A stretch of DNA of 60,693 nucleotides from a virus. Below are positions 100 through 59,060 of this stretch, piece after piece. The DNA is taken from IMG/VR virus record IMGVR_UViG_3300029604_000003; one strand, written 5' to 3'. The number at the start of each line of letters is the position of its first letter. Positions within the stretch are counted from its first letter, which is position 1. The position numbers and the translations under genes were made by a program. Below the pieces are notes generated by a model that was not told where the DNA came from, ran no database searches, and was given only the letters and a program-made list of their open reading frames with translations.

Positions 100-573
100 A
101 AATGGAAATTCGAATTTAGGATTGACGCCACTAAATAATGTAAGCGTCTTTCCATTAGTTGCATAGAAGTATGGGTCTGGACAAATTACGGAGATTTGAG
201 TAGTTTCATGAGCCTGGAATATTTCAGGTTCATTCGACTCGACGTAACCGAAAGCATCAAGAGATCTCTGATCCGTTACGAATGTCAACATGAGGTATCT
301 CTTGATAGGGAAATACTTATATGTAGTATGCCTAATAGTTTCGATATCTGTTCCGAATCTAAAATCCAGAGTCATAACGATATTTCTAGTTTCAAGTTTA
401 GCACTATTATATAATGCTCCATCTCCGGTCGCTATCTCACTAGTGTTGATAGTTGCCTTAACTGGCCCCAAACCTTCAATGTCTGTTATAGCTAGACCCG
501 AAACCTCAGGCCTAGCTAGTTCCATTTCTAGGGATTCCCCTAAATAATTAGTAACGATTACTTTCTTTATCAT
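1..573 (-). CDS. Distal tail protein (Dit / siphovirus tail family), N-terminal 191 codons; same gene as 60259-60594 across the circular junction
   Basis: ATG at 573 overlaps the TMP stop (ATGA). The frame stays open to base 1 and continues at 60594, giving one 302-aa ORF. The N-terminus MIKKVIVTNYLGESLEMELARPEVSGLAITDIEGLGP looks like Sipho_tail/Dit proteins. The gene lies directly after the tape measure gene. Confidence 0.7.
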   Translation of the reverse strand, partial: MIKKVIVTNYLGESLEMELARPEVSGLAITDIEGLGPVKATINTSEIATGDGALYNSAKLETRNIVMTLDFRFGTDIETIRHTTYKYFPIKRYLMLTFVTDQRSLDAFGYVESNEPEIFQAHETTQISVICPDPYFYATNGKTLTLFSGVNPKFEFPFENNSLTEKLINFGDIVHMYENVVTYKGDASVGI

Positions 574-6500: not shown

Positions 6501-9368
6501 CTTAAATAACAGCATCATCGTTCCGAATACGGCTACAAATTGTTTCCATCCTTTCTTCATGGAACTAAAGTCCATCTTAGAAATTTTAGACATTACTTTA
6601 GCTAATCCGTATATTGCTACCACGGAACTTAACAATGTAAGCGCTCCTCTAGCTCCGCCTAAACCATTCGCTTTTCCAACAGCAATCATAAGAACCGATA
6701 ACGATCCAACAGCTAATACTAAAGCACCAATAGTGCTCCCAGCATCTTCAATATTGTAATTAGACAACCCTTTTATAGCTTTAACCATCAGTAGTAGAGA
6801 GGCTGCTAAAGATACAATTTGAAGAGCTCCAGCAGATGCTAATTTGGCGTTAGCGCCCATTGTATATTTAGTTAATGCCCCAGAGCATATAGTAATTACT
6901 CCAACTAGACCAGTTATTACTCCAATGTTAATAGCCATAGACTTATTGATGGTCACATTTTGAAGTTTTTCTAATGCTATCGTCATTAGTAAAATACTTC
7001 CAGCGATAGAAATTACCATGGCCGAAACTCCGGAGAATCCTTTTGCTAACTTTTCTGTTGAAATAGAACCGATCGCGTAAGCAAATGCTGTTAATGCTGC
7101 TCCCAATATTCCTATCAAGACAACGGCGCCTTCGATTCGATCCTGAGGTAACACGGTTAGCAAAGCTATAGATCCTACTAATATAGCTACGGCTTTTGCA
7201 ATTTTAATCACTATGTCAGCTTTGATAGAATCCTGCCAAGTTTTAAGGGTTAGTGCTCCTTGATTCATTAATTTAATAAAGCTGTTAGCCATTGCTGATG
7301 GTAATGCAAATAAACCGCCAAATCTGTCCGTAAGAACCTGTAATAATTTAGAGAGATTATAAAGGGCCTTTACAGAAACCCCTCCTAACAAGATAGTTAA
7401 GATATTAGCTGTATTAACCTTTCCGGATTTGTCTTCAATGAAAGAAAATACACCATCAAATGTATCAATCATCGTTTTCTTAAATCCGGCTGCCTGATCG
7501 GTCCAACCTTTTAAATATCCTGTTATCTTAGACCTAAGAGAATATAATTTCGAAGTAAAAGAATCTATCGAATCTCCTGCTCCACCAAAACTCTCTTTAG
7601 CAATTGCTCCTATTCCAAGAATAGTACTGAGTAAAGCTTTGAAATCTATATGGCCAACTTCTTTACAATGATCAATAAATTCATCAATCAGTTTCCCAGC
7701 ATTTTCACCAAAGTCTTTTATATCCGGCCACAGTGTTTTAACTATTAATTCATCTAACAGTTTTATTACTTCCTGTGTACCTTTCCAATTCCATATCGCT
7801 TTCGCAAAGTACTCGACATTTTTGATGGAGAACGCTATTGCCGATGATATCAGATTAACGCCTTTGGCCACTACATCAGATACCTTCGCAAACTTGTCAA
7901 ATTGAACGATTCCATCGCCGAGAACAGCAGTAAGATCGAGTACACTATTTACAGATACTCCCAATAATTTAGAAACTATCTGTAAAGCGATTTTAAGTCC
8001 TACGCCAAGAACATTTTTAACAATTTTTACAATTGTAAACAGGCCCTTTAAAGTTCGATATAATTTATCAACTTTATCTCTAGACATTATCAGTTTCTTG
8101 GTAAAGACTTCGAATGCATCAGTTATGTTTTTTATTTCTTTTGCATTCTTTTCTGGGAATATAGCCCTATAAGCAACTCTAAATGTATCCAATACTCCTA
8201 CTGCGGCTGCCATTACGTTAACAAATGAACGCATTAAAGAATTTCGCCCACCCATTTTTTTCCAAGCGTCAAGGGTGGCATTCTTAGCTGCAAATGTTTT
8301 TACGATGTAGTTACCGATTATATTGTCTAAGAAGCCCCAAAGTTTTTTAGATTCTTCGAAGTTACCAAATATCGTTTCCCAAGTATGTTCCCATCCCGAG
8401 CCAATAGCTTCTTTCCAAGCAGCAAACATCTGTCCGGCATCTTTAAATTCAGAAGCAGCAGCATATGCTTTTTGACCAAGTTCTGTGGTTTCATCAGTAT
8501 ACTTGCTAAGTGTCTGAACAAGAACATCAGTAGTCATCCACTGATACTGAAGGTTATCATTCCAGTTTTTTGTAGCATTGAATGCGTCAGATGTAGCCCC
8601 TTTAGCATTTGTAGTTGTGGTGTAGTAGTCTTCACCCTTTTTAACGACTGTTCCTAGAGCAACGGCAGTATCAAGCAAGTTCTGTTTGAAATCCATTGTT
8701 GCCATATTAGCAACTTCAATTGATTTCCAGTCGATAAGCTTTACGTATCCGGCTGATAATGCCTGAGCAAAGTTATACATTGCGTGAGACGCCTGTTCTG
8801 CATTTGCACCAGAAATTGCCGCTTCGTTTGATACACCTTTGATTGCCGCAACTGCGTCTTTTAACCCAACACCAGCATTCGTAAACTTTCCAATATTTGC
8901 GGTCATGTCTGAGAACGAATAAATAGTTCTATCCGAATACGTATTAAGTTCGTCAAGATACTTATTTACCGTAGACAAACTTTCTCCAGTGGACATAATA
9001 ATTGTCTGAATAGAGTTCATCTTTAATTTATATTCGTTCCAACCATCGGACATACCATCAAAAGCTAAAGCAGATACTATTTTTTTGCCTGCGTCAACAG
9101 CTGCATTCGTAAGTCGATTCAGCACACTCATAACTACGGTATCCATAGCTGAGAATTTGACTTGAACTGCTTCTACCGTTCTGCCCATTCCGTCCATGTT
9201 GAACTTTTTGGTCTCATTTTGAAATTTAGCAAGACTCTTTCCAGACTCACTAAAGTCGATGCTTTTCTTAAGAGCTTCTATAGATTTTTGACTTTGACGA
9301 ATTTTTTTCTCGAATTGTCCATTCTCAAATTGCATTCGAACAACGTCGTCTTCAACAACTTTACCCAT
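570..9368 (-). CDS. Tape measure protein (about 2,932 aa)
   Basis: Longest ORF, lying between the chaperone region and Dit. It has Lys/Ala/Ser-rich helical N- and C-terminal thirds, a long hydrophobic core and tandem 62-aa repeats. I prefer the ATG at 9368 (MGKVVEDD; AGGAGG upstream; TAATG overlap with the upstream stop) over the track start at 9389. Confidence 0.85.
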   Translation of the reverse strand: MGKVVEDDVVRMQFENGQFEKKIRQSQKSIEALKKSIDFSESGKSLAKFQNETKKFNMDGMGRTVEAVQVKFSAMDTVVMSVLNRLTNAAVDAGKKIVSALAFDGMSDGWNEYKLKMNSIQTIIMSTGESLSTVNKYLDELNTYSDRTIYSFSDMTANIGKFTNAGVGLKDAVAAIKGVSNEAAISGANAEQASHAMYNFAQALSAGYVKLIDWKSIEVANMATMDFKQNLLDTAVALGTVVKKGEDYYTTTTNAKGATSDAFNATKNWNDNLQYQWMTTDVLVQTLSKYTDETTELGQKAYAAASEFKDAGQMFAAWKEAIGSGWEHTWETIFGNFEESKKLWGFLDNIIGNYIVKTFAAKNATLDAWKKMGGRNSLMRSFVNVMAAAVGVLDTFRVAYRAIFPEKNAKEIKNITDAFEVFTKKLIMSRDKVDKLYRTLKGLFTIVKIVKNVLGVGLKIALQIVSKLLGVSVNSVLDLTAVLGDGIVQFDKFAKVSDVVAKGVNLISSAIAFSIKNVEYFAKAIWNWKGTQEVIKLLDELIVKTLWPDIKDFGENAGKLIDEFIDHCKEVGHIDFKALLSTILGIGAIAKESFGGAGDSIDSFTSKLYSLRSKITGYLKGWTDQAAGFKKTMIDTFDGVFSFIEDKSGKVNTANILTILLGGVSVKALYNLSKLLQVLTDRFGGLFALPSAMANSFIKLMNQGALTLKTWQDSIKADIVIKIAKAVAILVGSIALLTVLPQDRIEGAVVLIGILGAALTAFAYAIGSISTEKLAKGFSGVSAMVISIAGSILLMTIALEKLQNVTINKSMAINIGVITGLVGVITICSGALTKYTMGANAKLASAGALQIVSLAASLLLMVKAIKGLSNYNIEDAGSTIGALVLAVGSLSVLMIAVGKANGLGGARGALTLLSSVVAIYGLAKVMSKISKMDFSSMKKGWKQFVAVFGTMMLLFKASAKAGPNASKAAVLLLGFTVSLHVLLAAFEKLQKYDFKTMAKCITDLIALMIPIGGLIKASASAGQYAARAGVMMMTVAGSIVILTAAIAILSGLDQSKMAGATAAVDSIILCMSAMIKAGDVSIDAKKSVIVAALVVGEIAGVIALLAQLDPTGVMAGSAAISLLLGVFTLCLKGFAGVGKVRASVLLAGAVLLEIAGVIGLVAQLDWKRSLAASAGLSMVLLSISASMLILQNVPIAGAINSLGSFSIFVAGLAAIIAVLGGLNKIPGFQDFMNGGVQVLEILGEGLGKLVGGIISGVGQGITDGLPQIATNLSDFAKKLQPFLSAMGKVKPEIGSSMSVLAGCIVKIAGAEIVNAISTFVNLGKDPIQKFAYQLQYLGAGMKSYGDQVANVNPETVKGTAIAAKTLVELAKAIPRSGGLAQLLAGAKDLADFGLSLIPFGAAFAIYATEVANINPGVIKGTSSAAQTLTDLANAIPEAGGLKQLLTGSKSLTSFGLSLIPFGAAFATYSSLVAGVNTSTIKATSAAAMTISEFANSIPKLDGMKEWFVGGSEDLGTFGKSMVSFGNSFAKYSDSVSKVDTESINATSAAAMTITKLAKTIPSLDGMKEWFVGGSQDLGTFGKSMVSFGKSFAKYSKTVSGIDTSTITATSAAATSIAKLNDDLPEATSAKSILFGGNKESLKKFGKNLVSFGESFVSFSTTIKGADTSNAGTIAKQLSDFINSLNGVKGGLAKKVKDMNKAFKALGKTSLKSVQNGFESKSGDFEKVGSKVVGWISTGMKNNSEDMKSPSSSVAKKFLKYVTDAFKSDTDTTDGFNSVVNSALSTANSTFKDYNSKFKDAGSSLAKNLASGMKSNSKDFSTAGTNAAIGFMSGAKNKSSDVYSTGVSLGNQLLKGMKSKKSLDEHSPSKKTNKIGAYAGEGLVKGVKSTAGDIELAGIDAGRGALLGAGKGIKDGAKKVQKTVTGYVKGIKKSISKSVGNKDVDGVMKTVNGILNAGNSTFSDQMDKTTKDIIKSANKAGNGVTSSYDATSKKIASKSKKNSKKAKIKMTKIIKVAYQFGKTFDKAVSSFNKTPYETITKISKSLGKELLKTTPKLKTLSKATKTAEKTIKNFAIALYKESDQYKEDTKSVKQHEAALKKLLKTQDRLKKGLSASGKKLSKKNLNSAIKENNTAIKNAVKQLKDDQKTIQSNINSTFKEYRNNIINSIKEYTKFTNIAFDNSRNIFSEFSDSMDDEMSTVLKNMESQVDGYQEMKDNLAKLSKNGLSKGLIDTLKGMGESGYAYIKLFANASKEEIDRANTAYAEASKQTKEDIIASYKQTYQDAVKWKSSIKKMLNQGWDIRLVQELVDEGPGNLSKVLEMLTFSDEERKEINDVYVKNLKLQKSGANDIIKSFALKKEKEAAKKKAKKAVKKTAKEVKKDVKEIPNAVSEAAKEMEKNLKKINNDWDDAKKKIEDTAKSMTESVKSSLDSFTSFVNFDISSSTDYFTRYEEVVNDLGNDTIIDRMWSQVNAEKRVIEGLEELKNMRFADGLLDYLKSLGTQAIPYIEGFKLATSEQITEVNNLFAEKMQMTKDSVKQQARDNVEAVKKWEAEILDLAKSLDPRLLKELVDQGMSAADLVDVYYSMTPAERKEMNDLYVEKLSINEEVAKTVSDSYKEAGLGAVNSMYQGMIDAATGKDVSSKKGSSRNLKGSAATKTVHAVAKSFDEVLKKDTSFKSSGKKAGNQFKAGIDSASEGVAKSAKQSAKKACTAFTNYAETNFKKAFKSSGTSLGYCFALGLAATTVLTAVESSCKSVVDKALSSFSKGSDKASSKGSALGNSFARGIRGAIPSAVSAAQELVDAVNAVLSKIQMPSLSASVNTSNLSSMVSSGVTSATGSSVAGASAGFAASIASGIAGSVFGKGNGLSKALAALQNGGRGSKTGRALKGSSTNVTNNYTFNQTNNSPVALSNKEIYRQTKNQFSQLKGALK
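4400..5420 (-). repeat. About six tandem ~186-nt (62-aa) repeats inside the tape measure gene
   Basis: Protein units of the form GG(L/M)K(Q/E)..G(S/A)..L..FG.S(L/M).(P/S)FG..FA.Y...V..(V/I)(N/D)...I..T(S/A)(S/A)AA.T(L/I)..LA..IP recur six times. DNA blocks such as gagaccatact..ccgaaagttcctaa recur at about 186-nt spacing. Boundaries are approximate. Confidence 0.8.
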
Positions 9369-9742
9369 TATCCAGTGACCTCCTTCCAAGCATCTTTAGC
9401 TAGCCTATCAAATACCGGTTTTAAAGCCGGGTTAATATAGTCAACCCCCTGAACATATCCACCATTTCTAGTTCCATGTCCATATTGTAGAATAATAGCT
9501 ATATTCACATGGTTCACTACATTAGAATTTTTAAAAACCAAACTTACTGACCCATTGCCACGAACTATTTCATAATACCACGATGCTGCTGTTACTCCAG
9601 TGTCAACAGGAGTTGCAGCCTTGAGGGCAGCTACGCCTTCACGTCCGTACTTGTTTAATATACCAACGTTAACGCCTTCCAAAAGTTTTTCGAAATAATT
9701 ATCGAGCTTTTTAAAGTTACCCTCAAGTTTGCATCTGATCAT
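9368..9742 (-). CDS. HK97 gp10-like tail/neck component (124 aa)
   Basis: ALKAATPVDTGVTAASWYYE and LQYGHGTRNGGYV resemble the HK97 gp10 family (TG.TA.SW motif). The gene is translationally coupled to the TMP start. Confidence 0.5.
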   Translation of the reverse strand: MIRCKLEGNFKKLDNYFEKLLEGVNVGILNKYGREGVAALKAATPVDTGVTAASWYYEIVRGNGSVSLVFKNSNVVNHVNIAIILQYGHGTRNGGYVQGVDYINPALKPVFDRLAKDAWKEVTG

Positions 9743-49032: not shown

Positions 49033-49248
49033 TTATTTGGTTTTCTTTTTGATAAGTTTCTCTTCAATGATACTCCAAATTACTAAACCTGCGCCTATAC
49101 CGATCATAGTAAGTGAGGCACCTTTGATAAGTCCGTCACGGTACATTTGACCGCCGAAGTTTATCAAAGCGTTACACTCATCACTACTCATCTTATTAGC
49201 GAGATTTTCAATAATGTTCTTCTGTTCATCTGTGATAACACTACTCAT
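49033..49248 (-). CDS. Small protein with C-terminal TM helix (71 aa)
   Basis: MSSVITDEQKNIIENL...GASLTMIGIGAGLVIWSII. The start ATG at 49248 follows AGGAGGTGATTTAT. Confidence 0.55.
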   Translation of the reverse strand: MSSVITDEQKNIIENLANKMSSDECNALINFGGQMYRDGLIKGASLTMIGIGAGLVIWSIIEEKLIKKKTK

Positions 49249-49262
49249 ATAAATCACCTCCT

Positions 49263-49287
49263 ATTATAATAACAGATTTATTTGCGA
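49263..49287 (-). promoter_or_regulatory. Promoter-like motif TCGCA-N14-TATAAT (first of the early array)
   Basis: The minus strand reads TCGCA AATAAATCTGTTAT TATAAT, followed by AGGAGG. Confidence 0.6.
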
Positions 49288-49327
49288 AAAAGAAACACAC
49301 CCTGAATTCTTGGCGATACTCTGACGT

Positions 49328-49356
49328 CCCTAGACCCTCGTATAGAAAGTCTAGAG
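49328..49356 (-). terminator. Hairpin CTCTAGAC-N13-GTCTAGGG at the end of the late operon
   Basis: An 8-bp stem (one G-U) lies 15 nt after the holin stop. There is no clear U-tract. A homologous hairpin occurs at 52940-52969. Confidence 0.4.
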
Positions 49357-49370
49357 ACATCGTATGTACG

Positions 49371-49595
49371 TTACTGCTTTCTAGCTGCGGCAGCTTTGCG
49401 CTTGTTATGCTGACTTGTGCTAATACCGAGCAGAGCACCCAGAAAAGTGTCAACTGCAGTAATAGTTCCTACGACCTGGTCTCCATATGGAAGCCCCCAG
49501 ATGGTAGCAAGTGTGAAATAAAGAGTACCAATCGCTGGTAAGGCAATTAATGCAATCCATTTAAGAATATCATACTGTTTATTTGTTAACTTCAT
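49371..49595 (-). CDS. Holin (74 aa, two TM helices, basic C-terminus)
   Basis: MKLTNKQYDILKWIALIALPAIGTLYFTLATIWGLPYGDQVVGTITAVDTFLGALLGISTSQHNKRKAAAARKQ has holin architecture (Dp-1/phiLC3-like pattern from memory). It is the last gene of the late operon. The start ATG at 49595 follows AAGGAGAAAGTCAAA. Confidence 0.6.
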   Translation of the reverse strand: MKLTNKQYDILKWIALIALPAIGTLYFTLATIWGLPYGDQVVGTITAVDTFLGALLGISTSQHNKRKAAAARKQ

Positions 49596-49923
49596 TTTGA
49601 CTTTCTCCTTCCGATATTGGTGGTACGGTAAATATTTTGAGTCGGTTGACTCCCTCCATAACCCTCTTTGCTGAGCCATTTCCGCCTAGGGCTTTGTACG
49701 GTTCATAAAGGTAGTCGCTCAAATTCTCATATTCATCTTTTGTGATCCATCCACGTTCAATGTACGTCATTCCTAATGCTACAATGCGGTCGTGGGCCAG
49801 TCCAATGAGCATCTGACTTTGTAATGATTTTTTGTCATCTTTTTTCTGGAGCCAAGCCCAGAATCCCGAGGATGCAATAACCGAACACAACACAGTGACG
49901 ATAATTGATACGATACTTTCCAT
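49579..49923 (-). CDS. N-terminal-TM protein in lysis cassette (114 aa)
   Basis: MESIVSIIVTVLCSVIASSGFWAWL helix followed by a soluble domain. It is adjacent to and overlaps the holin gene. Confidence 0.4.
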   Translation of the reverse strand: MESIVSIIVTVLCSVIASSGFWAWLQKKDDKKSLQSQMLIGLAHDRIVALGMTYIERGWITKDEYENLSDYLYEPYKALGGNGSAKRVMEGVNRLKIFTVPPISEGESQNEVNK

Positions 49924-49934
49924 AATCTTCCTCC

Positions 49935-50318
49935 TTATGCGATTACTTTATCAAGCTCATAAGGAATAAACATCCATGCGTCATTACCTAATACAGAATA
50001 AGCTATTGAAAATATCTTAGCTCCATAATCGGCTATAAAGTTGCAGACCCATTCTTCCGCTAATATCCAATATTCTGGTTTTACAACCTTATGAATATCG
50101 TCTAGCAGACCGTAACTAACAAGAGCACAATGACCTAGCTCATGGATAAGAACTTTCATGAGGAGTGCACCATATAAGCTCCTCGACATGAAAATAGTTG
50201 CAAGGTTTGGGTCTGTGGTGGCTAATGTCATTTTTCCAGTCCTATCCATAAGCATTTTGTCATTTGGGTTTACGAACTTTATCCTCCATAAATATCCATT
50301 CATTGAGAATCTGTCCAT
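49935..50318 (-). CDS. Small HExxH zinc metallopeptidase-like protein (127 aa)
   Basis: The motif VLIHELGHCAL is read directly. It lies next to the holin genes. The subfamily (ImmA/IrrE-like versus another) is not resolved. Confidence 0.45.
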   Translation of the reverse strand: MDRFSMNGYLWRIKFVNPNDKMLMDRTGKMTLATTDPNLATIFMSRSLYGALLMKVLIHELGHCALVSYGLLDDIHKVVKPEYWILAEEWVCNFIADYGAKIFSIAYSVLGNDAWMFIPYELDKVIA

Positions 50319-50980: not shown

Positions 50981-51385
50981 TTAGGCAAGTCTACGGACAA
51001 TAAAAGCACTATTAGCAGCGACAGTTACGTCCGTAGTACCAGTATTAGTCACGGTTATACGATCGTAGTCCCCGCAACAATTCTTGACTAATGTCGAGGT
51101 AGCTACGTTATTAGAAGCATTGGCAGCTCCTGGAGTAGCAACCATAGTTGTCTCTGGCATCGTTGCCCCTCCTAATTGGAAAGCAAGCTGTACAGGAGTG
51201 CCTGCGACAGCGCCAGAGATGTTACCAGCAAAAGAAGCTTCATAAATGCCATTAGCTCTCATTTTGACAGATCCAGTGTTTGCTCTATGACACTCAGCGC
51301 AACCTGTCTTAAGAAGAACTTTGTCAAAGGTAATGGACTGACCAGCAGTTAATACCTGATCAGCAGTATTTGATAATTCAATCAT
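50981..51385 (-). CDS. C1q/TNF-like jelly-roll protein resembling the BclA C-terminal / BxpB exosporium domain (134 aa)
   Basis: The pattern ..GQSITFDKV....G....MRANGIYEASFAGNISG...GTPVQLAFQLGGATMPETTMV....ITVTNTGTTDVTVAANSAFIVRRLA parallels BclA-CTD/BxpB-type sequences as I recall them. Confidence 0.45.
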   Translation of the reverse strand: MIELSNTADQVLTAGQSITFDKVLLKTGCAECHRANTGSVKMRANGIYEASFAGNISGAVAGTPVQLAFQLGGATMPETTMVATPGAANASNNVATSTLVKNCCGDYDRITVTNTGTTDVTVAANSAFIVRRLA

Positions 51386-51449: not shown

Positions 51450-52199
51450 TTAGCAGCAACCGTTATTAGTTGATCCACAGTAGCATCCAAACCCGTAGTT
51501 TGCGTATGGATTTGGAACTGTAAATGCCGGAACAGCAGCTGGACGTAACTGATTAACAAGATACTGGTTCTGAGCACACTGAGATGCTGTAAGCTCCAAC
51601 TTGTTAATAGCAGCCTGCTGGCTAGCAATTGTCTGATCTTTTGCATCCATCTGCATTTTGACCATTTCATCATGCAGAGCACGATAGTTGGCATTATCAT
51701 TGTCGATAATGTCTCTTGTCTGATTGTTAATTGCATTTGTGATGGCACAAGTATTTGTAGCCATATCATACTGAATCTGAGCCTGTCCCTGGCGGTTCTG
51801 ACAGCAGCAATCAGCTAACTGTGTCTGAATAGCATTTGTTGACTGTAAATTTGCGATATTAGAAGCGTTAGCACTGTCACTGATAGCACTCTGAAGAGCG
51901 TTAGTAGACTGCAGCATGCTAGTATTCATAGCATAGAAGCCATCGCAAATTCCACTGTTGATGCCATTAAGCTTATTAAGAATTGACTGGGTATCAAATC
52001 CTCTCTGAAGATCGCCATTAGTTGCACAGCTATCTCCATTTCGTCCCTGGCCACCCCAGCCATTTCCCCATCCGCCGAAGATAGCAAACAGGATGATTAA
52101 CACCCACCATCCGTTTCCATTGCCCCAGCCATCACCATTTCCATCTTTTGTAACAGCAGCGATATCTGAAAGACTTGGCGCACTACCCATATTAAACAT
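51450..52199 (-). CDS. Gly/Trp-rich TM protein with Gln/Asn-rich coiled region and Cys-rich C-terminus (249 aa)
   Basis: GNGDGWGNGNGWWVLIILFAIFGGWGNGWGGQGRNGD is a YjcZ-like Gly-rich tiny-TM pattern. The protein also carries an internal CCCQNRQ and the C-terminal GFGCYCGSTNNGCC. Confidence 0.55.
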   Translation of the reverse strand: MFNMGSAPSLSDIAAVTKDGNGDGWGNGNGWWVLIILFAIFGGWGNGWGGQGRNGDSCATNGDLQRGFDTQSILNKLNGINSGICDGFYAMNTSMLQSTNALQSAISDSANASNIANLQSTNAIQTQLADCCCQNRQGQAQIQYDMATNTCAITNAINNQTRDIIDNDNANYRALHDEMVKMQMDAKDQTIASQQAAINKLELTASQCAQNQYLVNQLRPAAVPAFTVPNPYANYGFGCYCGSTNNGCC

Positions 52200-53049: not shown

Positions 53050-53403
53050 TTATGTCAAAGACTCGCTAGTAGCCTCCGATTCCGAACTGTCGCCGTCTGT
53101 TGTACTAACTGGGTCATTCTTGTAAGCTCTGATAGTAACGTCATTAGATAATCCGTCATGAATCTCAATGACGTTGTCCAGCTTGAACCCGTCGAATGTA
53201 GTGACATTTCCATTGTCGTCTGTAATCTCCATATGAGAAATATTGTCTGCATTACGAGCAGTAGAAGCGATTCTGTCAAACACTGCTGGGGATTCGTATG
53301 TTGAAGTAATGTTCAGATAAGTTCTACCGGACTGATTCTGAGCATACTCTCTTGTAAATTTTCGAATATCAACTGTCGTTCCATTTCCAAATTTAAGTTT
53401 CAT
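53050..53403 (-). CDS. Hypothetical late protein (117 aa)
   Basis: Minus-strand ORF whose start overlaps the end of the radical SAM gene by 11 nt. It has an acidic Ser-rich tail. Confidence 0.55.
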   Translation of the reverse strand: MKLKFGNGTTVDIRKFTREYAQNQSGRTYLNITSTYESPAVFDRIASTARNADNISHMEITDDNGNVTTFDGFKLDNVIEIHDGLSNDVTIRAYKNDPVSTTDGDSSESEATSESLT

Positions 53404-54730
53404 TTTGATCCTCCTTACTTAATTCTTTAAGCATATCAAGTTCTTCCTCTCCGATAATAGGAATAGCCCATTCATCCGGACAGTATATTTTGAATCTTTG
53501 TTTCCAATGTTTCTTACGATACCACTTATTCCAGAAATATGCATTTGCAAGAGATCTGGTCTTGTGCATATCGCAAATATAAGTACAACGAGAATCCGGT
53601 GTTCCATTTTCCTGATAGTTGTATGCAGAGCACCAACTGCAGCCTTCAGCAATAGGACAATAGAAGCATTCGTCACTAGACTCTGTTCTTCTGTCAATTT
53701 TATTGAGGCACTCAACGCACTGCTTATCGCATTTTCTTTGAGCAATTCCGAAATTGACATGGCCAATTCTAAGAGGCTCTCGGGATGTACCTAGACTGCT
53801 TTCCATATATCTGATGCATGGGTAAAGCCATCCATCGGGGTCCATTGCTAACATGAAGCCAGTTCCTCCGCACCAGTTTTCAAGATCTGTTTCTTCCTTT
53901 GGTTTGAAGAAGTCATTCTCGAATAATGCCATGAAATGGTCATCAGCTAAGTCATTTTCAAGCCAATAATCGGCTAACATTTTGAGCTGCTCATAATAGA
54001 TTTTCGCGTGCTCCAATGTCCATCCTTTTTCATAAACGACATTCGCATTGATATCTTTGTATCCAAGTTCTACCATATGCTTAATCGCCGAGAATAGATG
54101 CTGCACATTACCTGGCGCTATGGTGATCTTAGAGCCCATATAGTATCCCCTTGATATCCAATCACGAGCTCCAGCTACTGCCACATCATAAGACCCAGTA
54201 CCATCTGGAAAGACTCTACAAGCATCATGCAGAGCCTTATTTCCATCGATGGTAATTGAGAAAGAGAGATTATGCCGCCATTTGTTCAGGAACTTCTGAA
54301 CCTTAGGCTCAAAATATAATACACCATTTGAGCAAATCGAAATACAGAATTTTGTTGCCCATGGATGCATCAACTCGATAGCTTTATCATAGAAATACGT
54401 GCAAATCTGATCAATAAGATCCACGCATAAGAAAGGCTCTCCGCCAATAAACTCAATGATAATACCAGGTGATGTAGAGGCGTCGATGTAGTTACCGAGG
54501 CGTTCATCACCGGTAAGAAGCATATCAATAAGTTTCTTTGCATCTTCGAACTTCATTTTTCTCTTGCCTTTGTTTATCTGGTAACAGTAGGTACAGCACA
54601 AGTTACACTCGTCTGTTACTTGAAAAGTCACGGTACGAGATAAAGTTCTTCTGTCAGACGCATTATTTGTAATAATTGTCTCAGGATACAACCTTCCAAT
54701 CATATCCTGAAACTGTTCAAACTTCTTCAT
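53393..54730 (-). CDS. Radical SAM / SPASM-domain maturase (445 aa), anSME/peptide-maturase-like
   Basis: FQVTDECNLCCTYCY carries CxxxCxxC (nt 54584-54607), and GGEP follows. The C-terminal region has auxiliary-cluster cysteines (WCGGTG...YPC...CDKQCVECL...CFYCP..EGCSWC...RCTYICDMHK). Confidence 0.85.
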   Translation of the reverse strand: MKKFEQFQDMIGRLYPETIITNNASDRRTLSRTVTFQVTDECNLCCTYCYQINKGKRKMKFEDAKKLIDMLLTGDERLGNYIDASTSPGIIIEFIGGEPFLCVDLIDQICTYFYDKAIELMHPWATKFCISICSNGVLYFEPKVQKFLNKWRHNLSFSITIDGNKALHDACRVFPDGTGSYDVAVAGARDWISRGYYMGSKITIAPGNVQHLFSAIKHMVELGYKDINANVVYEKGWTLEHAKIYYEQLKMLADYWLENDLADDHFMALFENDFFKPKEETDLENWCGGTGFMLAMDPDGWLYPCIRYMESSLGTSREPLRIGHVNFGIAQRKCDKQCVECLNKIDRRTESSDECFYCPIAEGCSWCSAYNYQENGTPDSRCTYICDMHKTRSLANAYFWNKWYRKKHWKQRFKIYCPDEWAIPIIGEEELDMLKELSKEDQNET

Positions 54731-54734
54731 AGGC

Positions 54735-55064
54735 TTAGCCCTCTAATACGGTAATGTGTACGAGGTGCTCTGAAAAGTCTGTTACTGCCCATCTGAATTT
54801 AACATCTTTTCCTTCATGCTCCAGAACACGAGGCTGTAAAGACTTTTCTAACTCAGCTTTAGCAATGTCGTAGGAACACTCAGCCTCTTCAAGCAGTTTG
54901 TGATAATGCTTGAATGGTACTGAGTCCAGCACTGAAGCATCCGTATCATCTTTCGCCGACTCAAGCATATGAGCTACAACGTCTTTTCTAGTCATAACCT
55001 CGTATGCAAGTCTCTGTAAATAGTCAGCTGTTTCCTTGTTAAGTTCTAATGTAAAGTTTTTCAT
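54735..55064 (-). CDS. Small acidic helical partner protein of the radical SAM system (109 aa)
   Basis: Lies between the Cys-ladder gene and the maturase, with a 4-nt gap to the maturase start. Size and position fit the accessory protein of CXXX-repeat systems (from memory, unverified). Confidence 0.5.
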   Translation of the reverse strand: MKNFTLELNKETADYLQRLAYEVMTRKDVVAHMLESAKDDTDASVLDSVPFKHYHKLLEEAECSYDIAKAELEKSLQPRVLEHEGKDVKFRWAVTDFSEHLVHITVLEG

Positions 55065-55094
55065 ATTAGTTAACTCCTTTTCTTTTAATAGTTT

Positions 55095-56540
55095 TTATGC
55101 TTTGATATTAAAATGTAATTCGCTATAATATGTATTAGCGAATGTCGCTAATGGCTTTCCCTTGTTAATCTTTAGCTTATATGTTGGATAACCTGGAACA
55201 AGATACCAATCATTTTTGCTATCTAATTTTATAGTCGGTTCGTTGGCACTCATTTTGGAAGGGTTAAGCAATGAATCATGTTCATTAATAAATGTTATTG
55301 CTGTGTCGCCCAGATTTGTTTTCTGATTTAAAATTGTTAAACCATCAATATTAAAATTATACTCTGTTCCTTTTCTAGTTACGCTTACAGATTTAGCAGT
55401 TACTAAATCGGTGTCAACTGCATAAGTCCATTCGCCATTAGCAATCAGATCTACTGTTAGGTCCTCACCCCCCCCCGATACTACGGCACCAAATGCTTGA
55501 GCTTGGCAGGTACCTGTACACGTTGCTGAGCAGGTAGTAGCACATGCGTTTTTACATTGTCCACTACAGCCATTACTACATCCGTCGCAATTTCCAGTAC
55601 ATGAGCCGTAACATCCAGAACCACATCCTCCTGAACATCCGGAGCATCCTCCAGAACAATCAGAACAGCCTTGGCATCCAGTTGTGCATGCCGATTCACA
55701 AGATCCTTCGCAGCCTTGGCATCCAGTTGTGCATGCCGATTCACAAGATCCGTCGCAGCCAGCATAGCATCCAGTACAATCTCCTCCGCATCCACTTGAT
55801 CCAGAACATCCTCCACAAGATGAACATGAAGAACACGAACTAGCACAGCCAGTACAACTATAGCATGTGGCACAAGCCGAACCCTTTCCTTTCGATGAAC
55901 ATGAACTAGAACAAGATCCTCCGCATCCAGCGCATCCTGAGCACCCTTCACAAGATCCGTCGCACCCACTGCACCCATTGCAAGATCTCCCACACCCGTC
56001 ACAAGATCCAGAACATCCTCCTTGGCATCCACTGCTACACCCTATGCAACCAGAGCAAGCATTGCATCCTCCACAATTGCCAGAGCATCCTCCGCAGCCA
56101 CTCGAGCCGCTGCCACCAGATCCACCAGATCCGCTACATCCACCAGAACAGCTGCTACATCCGCTGCATGTACTACCGCACGTCCCTACGCATAGTCCAG
56201 AGCATGCACCACGACATGAAGAGCTAGCCCCATCGATTGGCTCTTTAGACAACGAGTCAGTGTAAGATAGTAATTCATTATTGAACGATGATGGGATCTT
56301 AGAGCCCGTCTTAAGATCGGCAGTATTCAAATTACCATGGTCTTTAATGTTCAACAAAGGCTCGACTACTTTTTTACCTTGATCCGCTGTGACTTTAGTT
56401 CCGGATGTAGGAGTTGTGGAGAAGTCGTACGATGCAGATGCAAACCCAGTCATAGAACCATTATATGCTCTACGTTGCATTTCAGTTTTTACCTTGGCTT
56501 TAAGAGTGTTCATTTCTGCCGCGGTAAGAAAATTAGGCAT
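55095..56540 (-). CDS. Fibre-like protein with a ~237-aa Cys-X2-3 ladder between globular N- and C-terminal domains (481-484 aa)
   Basis: Residues 112-348 are almost only C/G/S/T/A with Cys every 3rd-4th residue (62 Cys by my count). The flanking 111-aa and 135-aa domains have ordinary composition. It is the next gene after the 795-aa fibre. The start is ATG 56540 (9 nt after GGAGG) or ATG 56549. Confidence 0.8.
   Translation of the reverse strand: MPNFLTAAEMNTLKAKVKTEMQRRAYNGSMTGFASASYDFSTTPTSGTKVTADQGKKVVEPLLNIKDHGNLNTADLKTGSKIPSSFNNELLSYTDSLSKEPIDGASSSCRGACSGLCVGTCGSTCSGCSSCSGGCSGSGGSGGSGSSGCGGCSGNCGGCNACSGCIGCSSGCQGGCSGSCDGCGRSCNGCSGCDGSCEGCSGCAGCGGSCSSSCSSKGKGSACATCYSCTGCASSCSSCSSCGGCSGSSGCGGDCTGCYAGCDGSCESACTTGCQGCEGSCESACTTGCQGCSDCSGGCSGCSGGCGSGCYGSCTGNCDGCSNGCSGQCKNACATTCSATCTGTCQAQAFGAVVSGGGEDLTVDLIANGEWTYAVDTDLVTAKSVSVTRKGTEYNFNIDGLTILNQKTNLGDTAITFINEHDSLLNPSKMSANEPTIKLDSKNDWYLVPGYPTYKLKINKGKPLATFANTYYSELHFNIKA
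55666..55755 (-). repeat. Tandem 45-bp duplication (44/45 identical) within the Cys-ladder coding region
   Basis: cagccttggcatccagttgtgcatgccgattcacaagatcc(t/g)tcg occurs twice back to back, encoding the duplicated (D/E)GSCESACTTGCQGC unit. Confidence 0.9.
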
Positions 56541-56672
56541 TATCTTCATCCTCCTTTTTAAAAACTTTATTTGATTTTTCCTCCCGGGGATTTTTTATAT
56601 CTCGTTTTTCGTTATCTTTTACAAAATGATCAAATCCCGATAAATACATTATATAATACCCCCCATTTTGAA

Positions 56673-59060
56673 TTATCCCCACGTCGCTGCTAATGGCGTC
56701 CAGGCAGAACCATTGTAGAATCTAGCTACACCTGAAGTATCGATCCACAGGAGCTTAGTATTGGCCGGGGCAGAAGCACCGTAATGATATCCTCCAGGGT
56801 CTTCCGATCCTACAGCAAGCCAGCCAGGATCTCCCCATGATCCTCCGTATGAAATATAAACATACATCATTTTATTACGAGGGTTATATACTAACTGGCC
56901 GGGATATGGAGAAGATGGAAAACCGCCGCCTTCTCCAATATAAAGGCCGTTGACTCCTCCCCAATATTTCCCATTATAAACCTGTAAAACATCTGATTGG
57001 TCCGGATTAACCCATAGATCACCAACTTTAGGATTTGTTGGTTTGGATGCTCCATAGCTAACTCCGCCAGACTCGGCAGATTTCTTGATTGACTCTAACA
57101 GGTATTTACCATTTGGCGCATCAGCATGGAATGACTGAACATTACCTGGAGAGATAATATGAGTAGCCCCATCGAATGCTTTTAGATCGAAATTAGGAAA
57201 CTCTGTAGCCTGAGTGAACTTCGTGGTTGAGGATCGATATGGGGCTATATCTGTAGCCGTTTCTCCTTCTTCTAATTGAACTTGAATTTGGCAGTCGGTT
57301 ACGGTCGTTCCTTTAAAAACGGACACGCCCATACTATCAAGTGCGCCTTCGACCCTTGTAAAAGTGAATGTTTTCGATTTTGTATTATCGTTTGCAATGA
57401 TGTCAACAATATCAGTAACAGCATTATCAGTTACGTTTATTAAGAATACTCTTGCTGTTCCATTTTTTACACTCGCCGTAATTGTATATTTATTGCCAAC
57501 CGTTAGACGAGGAACAAGAATTGTTCTAAATAGTGCGAAAGTCGCATCGGCAGAAGCATCTGCTGTTCCTGAAGCGTGTATTACTCCATTTGAATCTACA
57601 GTAAATGTTACTCCATTCATAGTATACGATGAACCATGAAAATATGGATACGGAATCAGATTCTTTCCAATCGTCTTAATATCATAACCAGAATATGGAA
57701 CGAATGGATCATCGGTGTCAGTTACCATCCTAATATTAGAAACGGTCCCGTGAACATCACCAGTGGTTTTATGATATTGAATTACATAGTTGCAACTATG
57801 GTTTGTCCAGTCGTAATCATTTTTTGATAAAGTCTCAATATTAGTTACCCAAAGACCATTTTTAAAAATCTGAAAAAATGTATGTAAGGTTCCTTTAATT
57901 GTCGTATCATACTTAGCATACAGTGTATTTATAGTATTATTAAATAACTTCTCGACGTGCTCATATAATACAAAACCAGGTTGCACAGTACCGTCGGATA
58001 TAGTACCGTCTAATGAAATTATTCCTTCTTTAGTGTATGTCATAGTTACACCATGCGAAACGCTTCCGCTAGCTTTGACGTATGGATAAGGTAATAAATT
58101 CCTGGTAGCCTTGCCAATCATCAACGGCGCTTCTACAGTACCTGTTAGATCCGTTTTCGTTGACTCGATAAGCGATACTTTCTCTTTACCTAGCTTCTCT
58201 GCTTCCAGAGTAAGTTTAGCTCCAAGGTCACCTTCGAGTTTGTTTTTTATATTTTCAAACCACTTATCAAACTCGGTCTGGGACGCCTTTTCCCACTGCT
58301 GGAACGTAGACCAGTTAGCATCGTAAGCGGCTTTAATTGTAGCGAACCACTGATCATAGCCATTCTTAATACTGTCGTACCATTTCTGATAGTCCGATTT
58401 TGAAGTTGCTTGCCAATCCGTAATCTCTTTTTTAGCTGCCGTGAGCCAAGCCTGGTAATTCTGCTTCTCTCCATTCATCCATGTATTGAAGTTTGCAGTA
58501 TTCTCTTCTACAAACCGATTCAAGATATCTTTCCATTGAGGAATAAGCTGTTCGATGCTGATTACCTCGAGAATGCCTGTAACAAATGGACATGCGCTCG
58601 TCCCTACACAGTTTTCAATATCCGCCTGTCTGATTGACGTAACCTCTTTACCGACTGTGACATATGCCAATGGATACTGATGAACTTCTTTAGTATTTGT
58701 CAATGCCGGTTTGGCTGGTGTAGACGATGGCGTTCCTTTAATTAATTTAATGCTGTTTGCTCTTACAGATTCAACTGAATTGATCTCCAGAACAACTGCA
58801 TCAATACGATCCATAAGAATCTCTGATGGTGGAATAGTCACTGGATAAAGAGCATCGTTGTAACTCCAAGTATGATTAAACCATGCTCGTCCAGTTCCAA
58901 CCGTTACATTCATCTGATTGCTCTGCTTTACGACAAGGCAGTCTCCGATGGATGCAAAAATTCCATCTCGAATCAAGCCATCAAATAATCTTGAAATGTC
59001 GGTAGCGTCATATAATCTATCATGATCTACGGAATTAAAAAATCCAGATGCAAAACTCAT
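56673..59060 (-). CDS. Tail fibre / receptor-binding protein (795 aa)
   Basis: The N-terminus MSFASGFFNSVDHDRLYDATDISRLFDGLIRDGIF is typical of Firmicutes phage fibre/structural proteins. A Trp-periodic helical segment (..W..) follows. The C-terminus carries repeated GDLWV / LLWID...YNG..W motifs. It lies downstream of the hub protein. Confidence 0.65.
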   Translation of the reverse strand: MSFASGFFNSVDHDRLYDATDISRLFDGLIRDGIFASIGDCLVVKQSNQMNVTVGTGRAWFNHTWSYNDALYPVTIPPSEILMDRIDAVVLEINSVESVRANSIKLIKGTPSSTPAKPALTNTKEVHQYPLAYVTVGKEVTSIRQADIENCVGTSACPFVTGILEVISIEQLIPQWKDILNRFVEENTANFNTWMNGEKQNYQAWLTAAKKEITDWQATSKSDYQKWYDSIKNGYDQWFATIKAAYDANWSTFQQWEKASQTEFDKWFENIKNKLEGDLGAKLTLEAEKLGKEKVSLIESTKTDLTGTVEAPLMIGKATRNLLPYPYVKASGSVSHGVTMTYTKEGIISLDGTISDGTVQPGFVLYEHVEKLFNNTINTLYAKYDTTIKGTLHTFFQIFKNGLWVTNIETLSKNDYDWTNHSCNYVIQYHKTTGDVHGTVSNIRMVTDTDDPFVPYSGYDIKTIGKNLIPYPYFHGSSYTMNGVTFTVDSNGVIHASGTADASADATFALFRTILVPRLTVGNKYTITASVKNGTARVFLINVTDNAVTDIVDIIANDNTKSKTFTFTRVEGALDSMGVSVFKGTTVTDCQIQVQLEEGETATDIAPYRSSTTKFTQATEFPNFDLKAFDGATHIISPGNVQSFHADAPNGKYLLESIKKSAESGGVSYGASKPTNPKVGDLWVNPDQSDVLQVYNGKYWGGVNGLYIGEGGGFPSSPYPGQLVYNPRNKMMYVYISYGGSWGDPGWLAVGSEDPGGYHYGASAPANTKLLWIDTSGVARFYNGSAWTPLAATWG

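Follow-up and report, generated by a model that had tools for sequence, protein, structure and literature searches.

A phage common in the human gut carries, directly behind its tail-fibre-slot gene, three co-oriented minus-strand genes (a Cys-ladder gene, followed by the genes for a 109-aa partner and a 445-aa radical SAM/SPASM enzyme), and we give about an even chance to the reading that this locus represents a version of the CXXX-repeat radical-SAM maturation system belonging to phage tail modules, which would yield an enzyme-crosslinked fibre-tip appendage with a phase-variable head. All three open reading frames lie on the strand and at the positions where the first-pass annotation had placed them in the window (the whole 60,693-nt stretch of viral DNA analysed). 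No prior description of such a system was found. The features concerned are as follows.

53393..54730, minus strand: radical SAM/SPASM maturase of the TIGR04115 family, 445 aa, with CX3CX2C at nt 54584-54607.
54735..55064, minus strand: 109-aa partner, modelled as a three-stranded sheet on a long helical hairpin (AF2, pLDDT 97).
55095..56540, minus strand: Cys-ladder protein, the presumed radical SAM substrate, 481 aa (484 aa if translation begins at the alternative ATG, 56549).
55098..55466, minus strand: optional, lineage-specific, beta-rich C-domain behind the conserved linker EDxTVDLIANG.
55468..55476, minus strand: G9 homopolymer (read as C9 on the plus strand) where ladder and C-domain meet, a candidate contingency (phase-variation) tract.
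55506..56216, minus strand: Cys ladder of 237 aa, in which 62 Cys recur at C-X2/3-C spacing and the rest is G/S/T/A (from the sequence).
56217..56540, minus strand: helical N-domain of ~108-110 aa (LK.KVK.EM.RR..GS…YDF..P..G…; family alignment A4).
56673..59060, minus strand: 795-aa virion structural protein, whose gene fills the fibre slot and immediately precedes the ladder gene, its N-terminal 236 aa matching phrog_1220/9534/5339.
56676..56804, minus strand: C-terminal fibre-tip motif (…YHYGASAPANTKLLWIDTSGVARFYNGSAWTPLAATWG-stop) of the 795-aa protein, kept upstream of ladder genes.

The enzyme scored 497 bits against NCBIfam TIGR04115 (cutoff 350; classical members, 483-564), which agrees with its earlier placement in the 'CXXX-repeat target' family. 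The CxxxCxxC motif that had been reported was found as CNLCCTYC (aa 42-49), and the multi-Cys SPASM-type region described at the C-terminus is real, with eight cysteines (C287/C305/C341/C355/C358/C364/C367/C386) invariant in 21 homologs; 3,384 homologs were recovered at E<=1e-30. The next best families were PapB (the freyrasin ranthipeptide maturase; 168 bits), QhpD (107) and SCIFF (96), all Cys-thioether formers with the SPASM cysteines conserved, but the window enzyme falls below the cutoff of each (340 bits for PapB, whose membership was rejected). An identity as anSME was likewise rejected (54 bits, cutoff 349). Its closest solved structure is the SCIFF maturase CteB (5WGG, E 1.8e-18); since only CteB residues from 88 onwards align, the N-terminal RRE of CteB has no counterpart in the window enzyme.

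The ladder itself agrees with the Cys-rich core first described, since all 62 of its Cys fall between aa 112 and 348, with 33 of the 61 Cys-to-Cys spacings equal to four and 25 equal to three. The 237-aa core is composed mainly of G65/C62/S52/T15/A12, and its longest run of consecutive Cys at spacing <=4 counts 26; no other window ORF of at least 100 aa has more than four. Only one 45-nt duplication was found in the ladder DNA and the Cys codons are mixed (TGT 33, TGC 29), so the periodicity is, on the sequence evidence, kept at the protein level and not through recent DNA repeats. Near-identical phages carry ladders of 205 to 247 aa with 55 to 64 Cys, and across the family the ladder ranges from 19 to 96 Cys. 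The ATG at 56540 is likely the true start of the gene, with correct spacing from GGAGG. The ladder protein matched no Pfam, NCBIfam or PHROG family, and AF2 gave no confident fold for the ladder (pLDDT 30-45).

As for chemistry, QhpD offers a case in which a protein subunit, and not a leader-cleaved peptide, is cross-linked. The acceptor residues of PapB and QhpD are Asp/Glu, however, and the ladder has only 6 Asp and 4 Glu, which counts against assigning an acceptor or reaction type; it would also offer tens of sites, compared with 1-6 for PapB, QhpD and CteB. We regard it as distinctly improbable that the ladder is a metal- or iron-sulfur-binding (metallothionein-like) module, or undergoes other chemistry (Cys to formylglycine or dehydroalanine, epimerisation, intermolecular cross-links), and is not an internally thioether-stapled rod. 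The scarcity of PapB/QhpD-type acceptors favours this alternative, as do the match of the ladder units to C-X2-C and C-X3-C, which are classical metal-binding motifs, the export of one classical relative by Tat, a route for folded or cofactor-bearing proteins, and the finding of no characterised TIGR04115 member in the literature. Nevertheless, all nearest characterised families by HMM score make Cys thioethers, the anSME model stays far under its cutoff, and simple metal binding needs no dedicated SPASM maturase.

The classical CXXX-repeat system, which comprises a TIGR04115 radical SAM enzyme, a TIGR04119 maturase, a TIGR04116 small protein and a TIGR04114 repeat peptide, is defined bioinformatically in NCBIfam and, to our knowledge, biochemically uncharacterised. 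The trio that the first-pass annotation ascribed to NCBIfam was only partly right, since the classical system combines TIGR04116 with TIGR04119 and an exporter. Both systems share the enzyme family, a substrate with Cys every 3-4 residues and a small helix-hairpin/beta protein beside the enzyme that is probably remotely homologous. In contrast, neither the TIGR04119 second maturase nor an ABC or Tat exporter was found in the window, its substrate has a folded ~108-aa N-domain in place of a ~25-aa leader or Tat signal, and its ladder mixes X2 and X3 spacings and has 3-5 times the length. Defining phage-type loci by the N-domain and/or partner with the radical SAM gene, and classical loci by TIGR04116 with that gene, HMM co-occurrence split cleanly into 24 classical and ~48 phage-type bacterial-genome loci; no exporter, peptidase or signal peptide was found in the phage-type system, unlike in classical clusters. 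The order ladder, partner, radical SAM gene recurred in ~40 genome loci (radical SAM identity 42-75%), whereas identity to classical members was 37-41%. Judged from these sequences, the phage-type system is a clade distinct from classical CXXX-repeat RiPP clusters.

The partner has its own family (114 clusters at 50% identity), and its gene always lies just upstream of, or overlaps, the radical SAM gene. It aligned end to end with TIGR04116 (hhalign E 7.9e-5, probability 61%), and the partner in locus L085 hit both families as a bridging member, so that the partner may be called at best a remote TIGR04116 relative. No PDB fold match was found for it, and an identity as a PqqD-type RRE was rejected on the AF2 model, whose β-α-α-β-β layout differs.

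In myo- and sipho-type prophages alike, the phage-type cassette immediately follows baseplate or tail-fibre genes, with upstream neighbours including baseplate wedge, Baseplate_J, P2-I, Mu-Gp48, BppU_N, collagen-like and tail-fibre proteins; tail-fibre-like genes flank the trio on both sides in MT835573. Checks in related loci placed the trio consistently within phage tail modules, a setting in which classical clusters differ, and found ladder, partner and radical SAM genes together in dozens of loci. In the window, the 795-aa gene follows a phrog_538 minor tail protein gene, and no terminator was found between it and the trio. Its description as a tail fibre holds for the slot but not for the PHROGs name, which is 'head protein / virion structural protein' (N-terminal 236 aa); locus L085 has the same N-domain ahead of its ladder gene. 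The usual end of the gene upstream of the ladder is a motif of ~45 aa (…LWIDT…KYYNG..W…WG-stop), which forms the very C-terminus of proteins, otherwise unrelated, whose genes come just before ladder genes, and which is positive by HMM in 32 of the ~48 phage-type loci. When the DNA of viral contigs was searched for the motif alone, 14 of 24 evaluable loci had the radical SAM system close by (base rate of the system, ~2 of 50,697 phage records; none found in cultured phages), and in this reverse search the motif always lay 8-12 aa from a stop. The motif also precedes unrelated genes in ~10 of the 24 loci, so it does not serve only for docking of this system, and a shared recombination module could by itself account for the link between motif and ladder; both points count against the appendage reading.

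This position also bears on the very improbable alternative that the ladder protein and/or partner is a fibre assembly factor or transient cap (Tfa/gp38-type, chaperone-like) that binds the conserved fibre tip during folding and is later discarded, the radical SAM enzyme only tuning the cap. Fibre chaperones are canonically encoded right after the fibre gene, where the ladder gene sits, and the fibre C-terminus is co-transferred with the downstream gene, as is typical of fibre-chaperone pairs. 'Transient chaperone caps' on Alteromonas phage fibres, as described in PMC10579305, provide a precedent. Even so, a chaperone whose 237-aa ladder took up to 62 radical-SAM turnovers to mature would be costly, and both the ladder, in its length (19-96 Cys), and the C-domain vary like exposed structural or host-contact regions. 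The tip motif, moreover, occurs without the system as well, so that fibres with this tip do not require the system.

The N-domain was modelled as four helices (AF2 pLDDT 86-95) and ends in …SSSCRGAC, where the ladder begins; no PDB or PHROG homolog and no fold match were found, which counts against the appendage reading, as do the lack of a confident ladder fold and the 61% probability of the partner's match to TIGR04116. It co-occurs with the phage-type partner and radical SAM enzyme, and with TIGR04116 only through the dual-hit partner of L085. Because it is kept across myo- and sipho-type tails and tracks these two proteins whatever the tail type, a leader/recognition role fits at least as well as attachment. 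We weighed a rather unlikely alternative in which the ladder protein is a non-structural late RiPP-like product, its N-domain serving as a long leader bound by partner and enzyme, and the modified Cys-rich polypeptide is freed at lysis and never enters the virion, perhaps acting as an antimicrobial, metal chelator, matrix/adhesion factor or anti-defence factor. This would accord with the co-variation of the N-domain, with the secretion of the classical relatives as short peptides through ABC or Tat exporters, and with most family members consisting of N-domain and ladder alone. The fibre-to-lysis interval, moreover, is a known cargo site and a classical location of accessory ('moron') genes, which counts against the appendage reading. 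However, the ladder gene tightly abuts the fibre gene, often by a few nucleotides, is specifically linked to the fibre-tip motif and in L128 is set between fibre genes; the 108-aa N-domain is confidently folded by AF2 and is not a typical leader; and neither a peptidase nor an exporter accompanies it. The swapping of a C-domain like that of a receptor-binding protein and its poly-G gating would also be hard to explain for a free peptide.

The C-domain, reported as 135 aa, counts 136 aa, and the plan first proposed, with N-terminal attachment, shaft and C-terminal receptor binding, is not that of the family, since nearly all relatives stop 5-10 residues past the ladder. No homolog of this domain was found in the phage database or in the other loci. 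Close relatives of the window phage have it swapped, deleted (missing in 7 of 44) or out of frame; at least four types, 53-62% identical to each other or unrelated, are exchanged at the linker between phages whose radical SAM genes and flanks are 98-100% identical. Because it is swapped at a conserved linker between near-identical flanks, its behaviour suggests a host-interaction module. The G9 tract is the only G/C run of at least 7 in the 60.7-kb window (expected runs of at least 9: 0.08), and its length varies from G4 to G9 among the 44 close relatives, so that the C-domain, its own ORF intact throughout, is read in frame in some relatives and out of frame in others. Poly-G tracts have precedent in phage receptor-binding proteins (PMC12633550, citing Sorensen 2021), and in Campylobacter Fletchervirus such contingency tracts are likewise G-runs of at least 7 in a host-interaction gene that differ in length between close relatives and toggle the reading frame (PMC12633550). 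The window tract differs in gating an extra C-domain fusion that leaves the rest of the ladder protein intact, and its variation is known between relatives, not within one population.

A further likeness is to the adhesin gp38 of T2/S16-like phages, a separate protein, encoded directly downstream of the fibre gene, which sits on the tip of the gp37 long tail fibre and has an N-terminal attachment domain, then Gly-rich repeats and hypervariable parts that contact the host (PMC12032242). The window protein similarly has a helical N-domain followed by a Gly/Ser/Cys repeat and is linked to a conserved fibre tip, but no sequence or fold similarity between the two was detected, gp38 adopts its polyglycine-II sandwich fold by itself, without a modifying enzyme, and attachment of the ladder protein to a fibre is putative.

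Under the appendage reading, the partner would, at a late stage of infection and in the anoxic cytoplasm of the host, present the ladder protein to the radical SAM/SPASM enzyme, which itself has no leader-recognition domain. The enzyme would then modify many C-X2/3-C units, most likely, by analogy with its nearest characterised relatives, forming non-reducible thioether cross-links that turn a Gly/Ser/Cys chain unable to self-fold into a stiff filament resisting proteases and reducing conditions. The mature ladder protein, presumably present in virions, would work with the tail fibre, its helical N-domain most likely docking on the conserved C-terminal tip of the upstream fibre protein much as gp38 caps gp37. 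In the window lineage, the extra C-domain would be an exchangeable binding head, whose fusion to the ladder may be switched on and off by slippage of the G-tract. Many Clostridia prophages carry the cassette in the tail-fibre slot, which suggests that they possess an undescribed enzyme-matured tail appendage.

We found three co-oriented ORFs on the minus strand of the window, as the first-pass annotation had described:

55095-56549 (likely start 56540), minus strand: Cys-ladder protein, 62 Cys, two genes upstream of the radical SAM gene
54735-55064, minus strand: ORF of the 109-aa partner protein
53393-54730, minus strand: radical SAM/SPASM maturase, TIGR04115, with CNLCCTYC at nt 54584-54607

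The first ORF likely starts at the ATG at 56540, giving 481 aa, and all of its 62 Cys indeed lie within aa 112-348, with a Cys-to-Cys spacing of three or four in 58 of 61 intervals. The 237-aa ladder core contains 65 Gly, 62 Cys, 52 Ser, 15 Thr and 12 Ala, and every other ORF of the window has at most four closely spaced Cys in succession. A recent DNA tandem repeat was ruled out as the source of the ladder (a single 45-nt duplication; Cys, Gly and Ser codons mixed), and selection for its periodicity therefore acts on the protein. The protein matched neither TIGR04114 nor any Pfam or PHROG family, and public sources annotate both ladder and partner proteins as 'hypothetical protein'. A single-sequence search with the N-terminal domain (N-domain) returned one protein, and a profile search returned 129 ladder proteins, each of at most 216 aa; these are few and short against the thousands of homologs of the radical SAM enzyme (rSAM) because gene callers often break the ladder gene. 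Long ladder proteins are almost missing from protein databases, and in the related locus L045 (2073-3187) the ladder gene was called as two overlapping genes on opposite strands. Spurious ORFs also cover the window ladder at 55481-56032 (minus strand) and 55867-56265 (plus strand). Several of the ladder proteins (P0124, P0126, P0172, P0179 and others) have a precomputed match to PF27846, perhaps a very recent Pfam entry that already covers part of the family.

The 445-aa enzyme scored 497.1 bits against NCBIfam TIGR04115, the 'radical SAM peptide maturase, CXXX-repeat target family' (E = 3.7e-149; profile positions 2-359 of 359; curated cutoff 350 bits), and the membership previously proposed was thereby borne out. 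This family was already known, as a bioinformatic definition only. The adjacent Cys-repeat target that belongs to its definition is present as the 62-Cys gene two genes upstream, and a ladder gene adjoins the rSAM gene in nearly all of 79 genome loci. The CX3CX2C motif reads CNLCCTYC (aa 42-49; C42, C46 and C49), and the SPASM-type region was likewise upheld by a C-terminal Cys set conserved in homologs, with C287-x12-G-x4-C305, C355-x2-C358-x5-C364-x2-C367, C341 and C386 invariant in 21 of them. Identity as an anSME or sulfatase maturase was ruled out (TIGR03942, 53.8 bits vs cutoff 349), as was membership of the PapB, SCIFF and sactipeptide families, all scores being under cutoff (bits vs cutoff: PapB, 168 vs 340; QhpD, 107 vs 453; SCIFF, 96 vs 425; RumMC, 52 vs 720). 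The closest solved structure is CteB (5WGG; E = 1.8e-18), a thioether-forming SCIFF maturase with an N-terminal leader-recognition domain (RRE), whereas the window enzyme is without one, because the alignment starts at CteB residue 88. Since the nearest characterised relatives all form thioethers, the modification might by analogy be an intramolecular Cys thioether, a reading to which we give even odds; the usual Asp/Glu acceptors are rare in the ladder, which speaks against it, and beside it stands the lesser alternative that the ladder binds metal or receives a different chemistry. At E ≤ 1e-30 we recovered 3,384 rSAM homologs, many on phage-sized contigs. Several close homologs of 580-780 aa contain intein, Hint or LAGLIDADG Pfam domains (proteins P0042, P0058, P0067, P0069, P0077, P0078, P0080, P0091, P0092, P0100, P0103 and P0115); their maturase genes are interrupted by inteins, as is typical of phage genes.

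The 79 loci came from a scan of one genome per species and were mostly found in Lachnospiraceae, Oscillospiraceae and other Clostridia. Cultured carriers are Anaerolentibacter hominis CSJ-1 (L054), Eubacterium pyruvativorans i6 (L055), Neglectibacter timonensis SN17 (L062), Desnuesiella massiliensis mt10 (L074) and Anaerobacterium chartisolvens DSM 27016 (L078). HMM co-occurrence cleanly separated about 48 phage-type loci (N-domain and/or phage-type partner with the rSAM) from 24 classical RiPP-type CXXX-repeat clusters (TIGR04116 with the rSAM, never the N-domain). At rSAM identities of 42% or more, the substrate plan is constant, comprising an N-domain of ~105-125 aa (consensus …LK.KVK.EM.RR..GS…YDF..P..G…EH..K…SSCRGAC), a ladder of 19-96 Cys and 5-10 further residues, and the genes run from the ladder, in some loci via one extra gene, to a ~100-118-aa partner and then the rSAM. 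The classical relatives are more distant (rSAM 37-41% identical). Their substrates are short, with 12-16 CXXX repeats in peptides of 76-94 aa, and their clusters also encode a ~90-aa TIGR04116 protein, a second maturase (TIGR04119, fused or separate; present, for instance, in the classical loci L113 and L105) and ABC exporters. One classical locus, L129 (MT837480, 2222-6270), encodes a 174-aa ladder peptide with 32 Cys and a twin-arginine signal, followed by rSAM, TIGR04119-like and TIGR04116-like genes and TatA/TatC; its Tat signal implies that the product is exported in a pre-matured state or with a cofactor bound. We detected no TIGR04119 match in proteins neighbouring the window trio and no ABC or Tat genes near it, and the extra ~180-aa genes of some phage-type loci gave no TIGR04119 match either. 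The classical system pairs a short-leader or signal-bearing peptide with a dedicated exporter, whereas the window has a folded 108-aa N-domain and no exporter. This difference bears on the main rival explanation, in which the ladder protein is a late-expressed RiPP-like product acting outside the virion with the N-domain as a long leader; kinship with RiPP-type clusters lends it some weight, and with a folded N-domain and no exporter beside it we consider it rather unlikely. From the comparative sequence data it is highly probable that the enzyme has the ladder protein as its substrate, because the two are co-conserved in two clades with different substrate architectures.

The partner gave no HMM match to TIGR04116 even at E = 10, and a full-length profile-profile alignment reached E = 7.9e-5 (probability 61%). 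Partner and TIGR04116 profile have a terminal W-x-[ILV]-D-F motif in common, and the partner of locus L085 is matched equally by the phage-type partner and TIGR04116 HMMs. On these sequence grounds, the partner is regarded as probably a divergent TIGR04116-type protein. Its family comprises 114 clusters, and the cluster of the window phage has 396 members, one of which occurs on 212 contigs. The AlphaFold2 (AF2) model of the partner (pLDDT 97) is a three-stranded sheet on a long helical hairpin (β-α-α-β-β), with no PDB fold match beyond generic helical hairpins, and searching BFVD with it returned uncharacterised gut-phage proteins only. A PqqD-type RRE was ruled out, given this unlike model and no Pfam or NCBIfam match. 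The partner's putative role, on which we are evenly divided, would be to mediate recognition of the N-domain.

The trio had been suggested to stand beside fibre genes, and in related loci the same gene order recurred with baseplate and tail-fibre genes upstream. Just upstream of the ladder gene we found genes for baseplate wedge, Baseplate_J, P2-I, Mu-Gp48, Sipho_Gp37, BppU_N, collagen-like and tail-fibre proteins, and therefore the cassette occupies the fibre slot of prophages of the myo and the sipho type alike. The fecal phage MT835573 (L128), whose ladder protein has 193 aa and 22 Cys, bears fibre-like genes on either side of the cassette, and in the window a phrog_538 minor tail protein and a 795-aa structural protein precede the trio, with no terminator-like signal between the 795-aa gene and the trio. 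Among terminators or promoters that would isolate the trio as a moron, none exceeded chance. Variant architectures occur in L084, L088, L089, L091, L094, L124 and L125, loci in which the N-domain was not detected; in some, the ladder stands N-terminally before a C-terminal part of ~105 aa and the gene lies downstream of the rSAM, and the L125 protein has 920 aa, 91 Cys and a C-terminal region of 559 aa. Locus L065 has two ladder genes. In a related phage (L047/L048) the trio is directly followed by genes for a 705-aa protein, a second radical SAM protein (321 aa), a Glyco_transf_8-like protein and a GHMP kinase, which suggests that the tail region holds additional modification enzymes.

Several other genes surround the trio in the window. 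An acidic 117-aa protein is encoded at 53050-53403, its start overlapping the rSAM stop by 11 nt; it was ruled out as a fourth conserved component, with a homolog in L049 only. Farther downstream lie a 249-aa protein (51450-52199, phrog_16490), Gly/Trp-rich at its N-terminus and Cys-rich at its end (…GFGCYCGSTNNGCC), and a 134-aa protein (50981-51385, phrog_20016) with a weak match to 'collagen like minor tail'; both may be further appendage proteins. A 127-aa protein with a HELGH metalloprotease-like motif (49935-50318) and small holin-like proteins (49033-49923), membrane-spanning by eye, probably mark the start of the lysis module. On the minus strand, a very large ORF (2,939 aa) spans 570-9389. 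The window resembles a circularly permuted phage genome of ~60 kb, related IMG/VR contigs measuring 57-61 kb.

A more specific link between the ladder protein and the fibre came from the ~45 residues that close the 795-aa protein (…APANTKLLWIDTSGVARFYNGSAWTPLAATWG-stop), which recur at the C-terminal end of the gene immediately upstream of many ladder genes:

56676-56804, minus strand: fibre-tip motif (…LWIDT…KYYNG..W…WG-stop), also found among loci L045-L156

The upstream proteins bearing this tip are otherwise unrelated, ranging from 122 to 1,017 aa and including BppU_N, collagen-like and other types. An HMM of the motif matched 32 of the ~48 phage-type loci and none of the classical ones. 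We then ran the reverse test, searching viral contigs with a degenerate DNA pattern for W-I-D-T…K-Y-Y-N-G, and obtained 27 matching contigs against an estimated ~0.1 chance matches. A stop followed 8-12 residues past the motif in all 26 evaluable matches, and an N-domain, partner or rSAM lay within a few kb in 14 of 24 loci with enough flanking sequence, compared with a base rate for the rSAM clade of about 2 in 50,697 phage records. A different rSAM lies near the motif in L136. Where the tip ends in W/F-G, the ladder gene came next in seven of eight evaluable cases, usually within a few nucleotides. The motif also precedes unrelated genes, and the tip is thus a general joint and not a dedicated site. 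A tblastn search of cultured phages with the motif gave no match, its sensitivity being low for 45 aa. The gene linkage speaks for a ladder protein that acts together with the distal end of the fibre; either its N-domain would dock there, or tip and trio would travel jointly as a module. In function, the closest parallel is gp38, whose gene directly follows that of gp37; an N-terminal attachment domain fixes gp38 to the fibre tip, and its Gly-rich domain displays hypervariable loops (PMC12032242). Homology between gp38 and the ladder protein is not detectable. On this genomic evidence, we put the chance that the mature ladder protein is a virion part at the fibre tip at one in two. The same linkage could accompany an assembly factor or a transient cap, which we regard as a lesser alternative.

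The AF2 model of the ladder protein, which used 47 database homologs, has a compact N-domain of four helices (pLDDT 86-95), no predicted structure for the ladder (pLDDT 30-45) and a beta-rich C-domain modelled without alignment depth. Homology of the N-domain to known fibre or adaptor domains was not found: its best match in a PDB profile search was not significant (8y6v gp162, E = 0.037), PHROGs and Foldseek gave none, and the whole model had no PDB sequence or fold match. A ladder chain unable to fold unaided, combined with a cross-linking-type enzyme, would be consistent with a covalently stapled filament. The hosts are strict anaerobes, and a plausible rationale is that thioethers would replace disulfides, which are unusable in the reducing gut, and that the rSAM needs anoxia.

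We further compared 44 IMG/VR contigs of close relatives (L001-L044; rSAM 98-100% identical). Their ladder proteins have in common the N-domain, a ladder of 205-247 aa and the junction QAQAFGAVV…(E/Y/Q)DPTVDLIANG, beyond which they diverge. The C-domain is in frame in 23 of the 44, as at least four types that are 53-62% identical mutually or unrelated. It is cleanly deleted in seven contigs, with the stop directly after GAVV(SG), partially deleted in two, and interrupted by a single in-frame stop in three; in a further 8-9, a G-tract of varying length (G4 to G9) puts it out of frame with its ORF fully intact:

55468-55476, minus strand: G9 tract (plus-strand C9) at the ladder/C-domain junction, its length differing among near-identical phages

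The tract is the sole G/C homopolymer of at least seven in the 60.7 kb, with 0.08 expected for runs of nine or more. Sequencing error is an unlikely source of the poly-G differences, since the rSAM ORF is intact in all 44 contigs and independent nonsense mutations and deletions fall at the same joint. As a long coding homopolymer that differs in length between close relatives and thereby switches the frame, the tract is a candidate contingency locus (homopolymer phase variation), and the poly-G tracts of 7-11 in Campylobacter phage receptor-binding proteins are a precedent for it, according to PMC12633550, which cites Sorensen et al. 2021. No C-domain homologs were found in phage records or other loci. 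From these sequence patterns, the C-domain appears to behave as expected of a host-interaction head. The three-part fibre of the first-pass annotation, with an N-terminal attachment domain, a Cys shaft and a receptor-binding C-domain as core, did not survive this comparison: because the C-domain is optional, swapped and gated, the conserved unit is the N-domain plus the ladder.

Taken as a whole, the reading that a widespread group of gut Clostridia phages has virions with a fibre-tip appendage, made from a single chain into tens of thioether macrocycles by a phage-encoded rSAM and bearing in this lineage a poly-G-gated swappable head, is tentative and somewhat less than an even bet. The searchable literature held no description of the phage-tail clade, the folded N-domain substrate family, the partner family, the fibre-tip linkage or the poly-G-gated head. 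To our knowledge, radical-SAM/RiPP chemistry has so far concerned secreted peptides and a few enzyme subunits. If the reading is true, this chemistry would build a viral host-recognition organelle, a new role for SPASM maturases. The system would be the first case in which a structural protein of a virus matures through RiPP-type enzymes, and in an anoxic habitat it would serve as a redox-proof stand-in for disulfides. The shaft would then not be a folded trimer, and covalent enzymatic stapling would be a new principle for phage fibres; virion incorporation and stapling, if shown, would place the system in a new category within phage structural biology. With its dozens of enzymatic cross-links, it would also be a natural scaffold of interest for peptide and protein engineering, and the poly-G-gated swappable C-domain is a further example of contingency loci in phage host-range genes. 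The system is common, cultured carrier strains have been identified, and TIGR04115 gains a concrete, testable substrate and phenotype.
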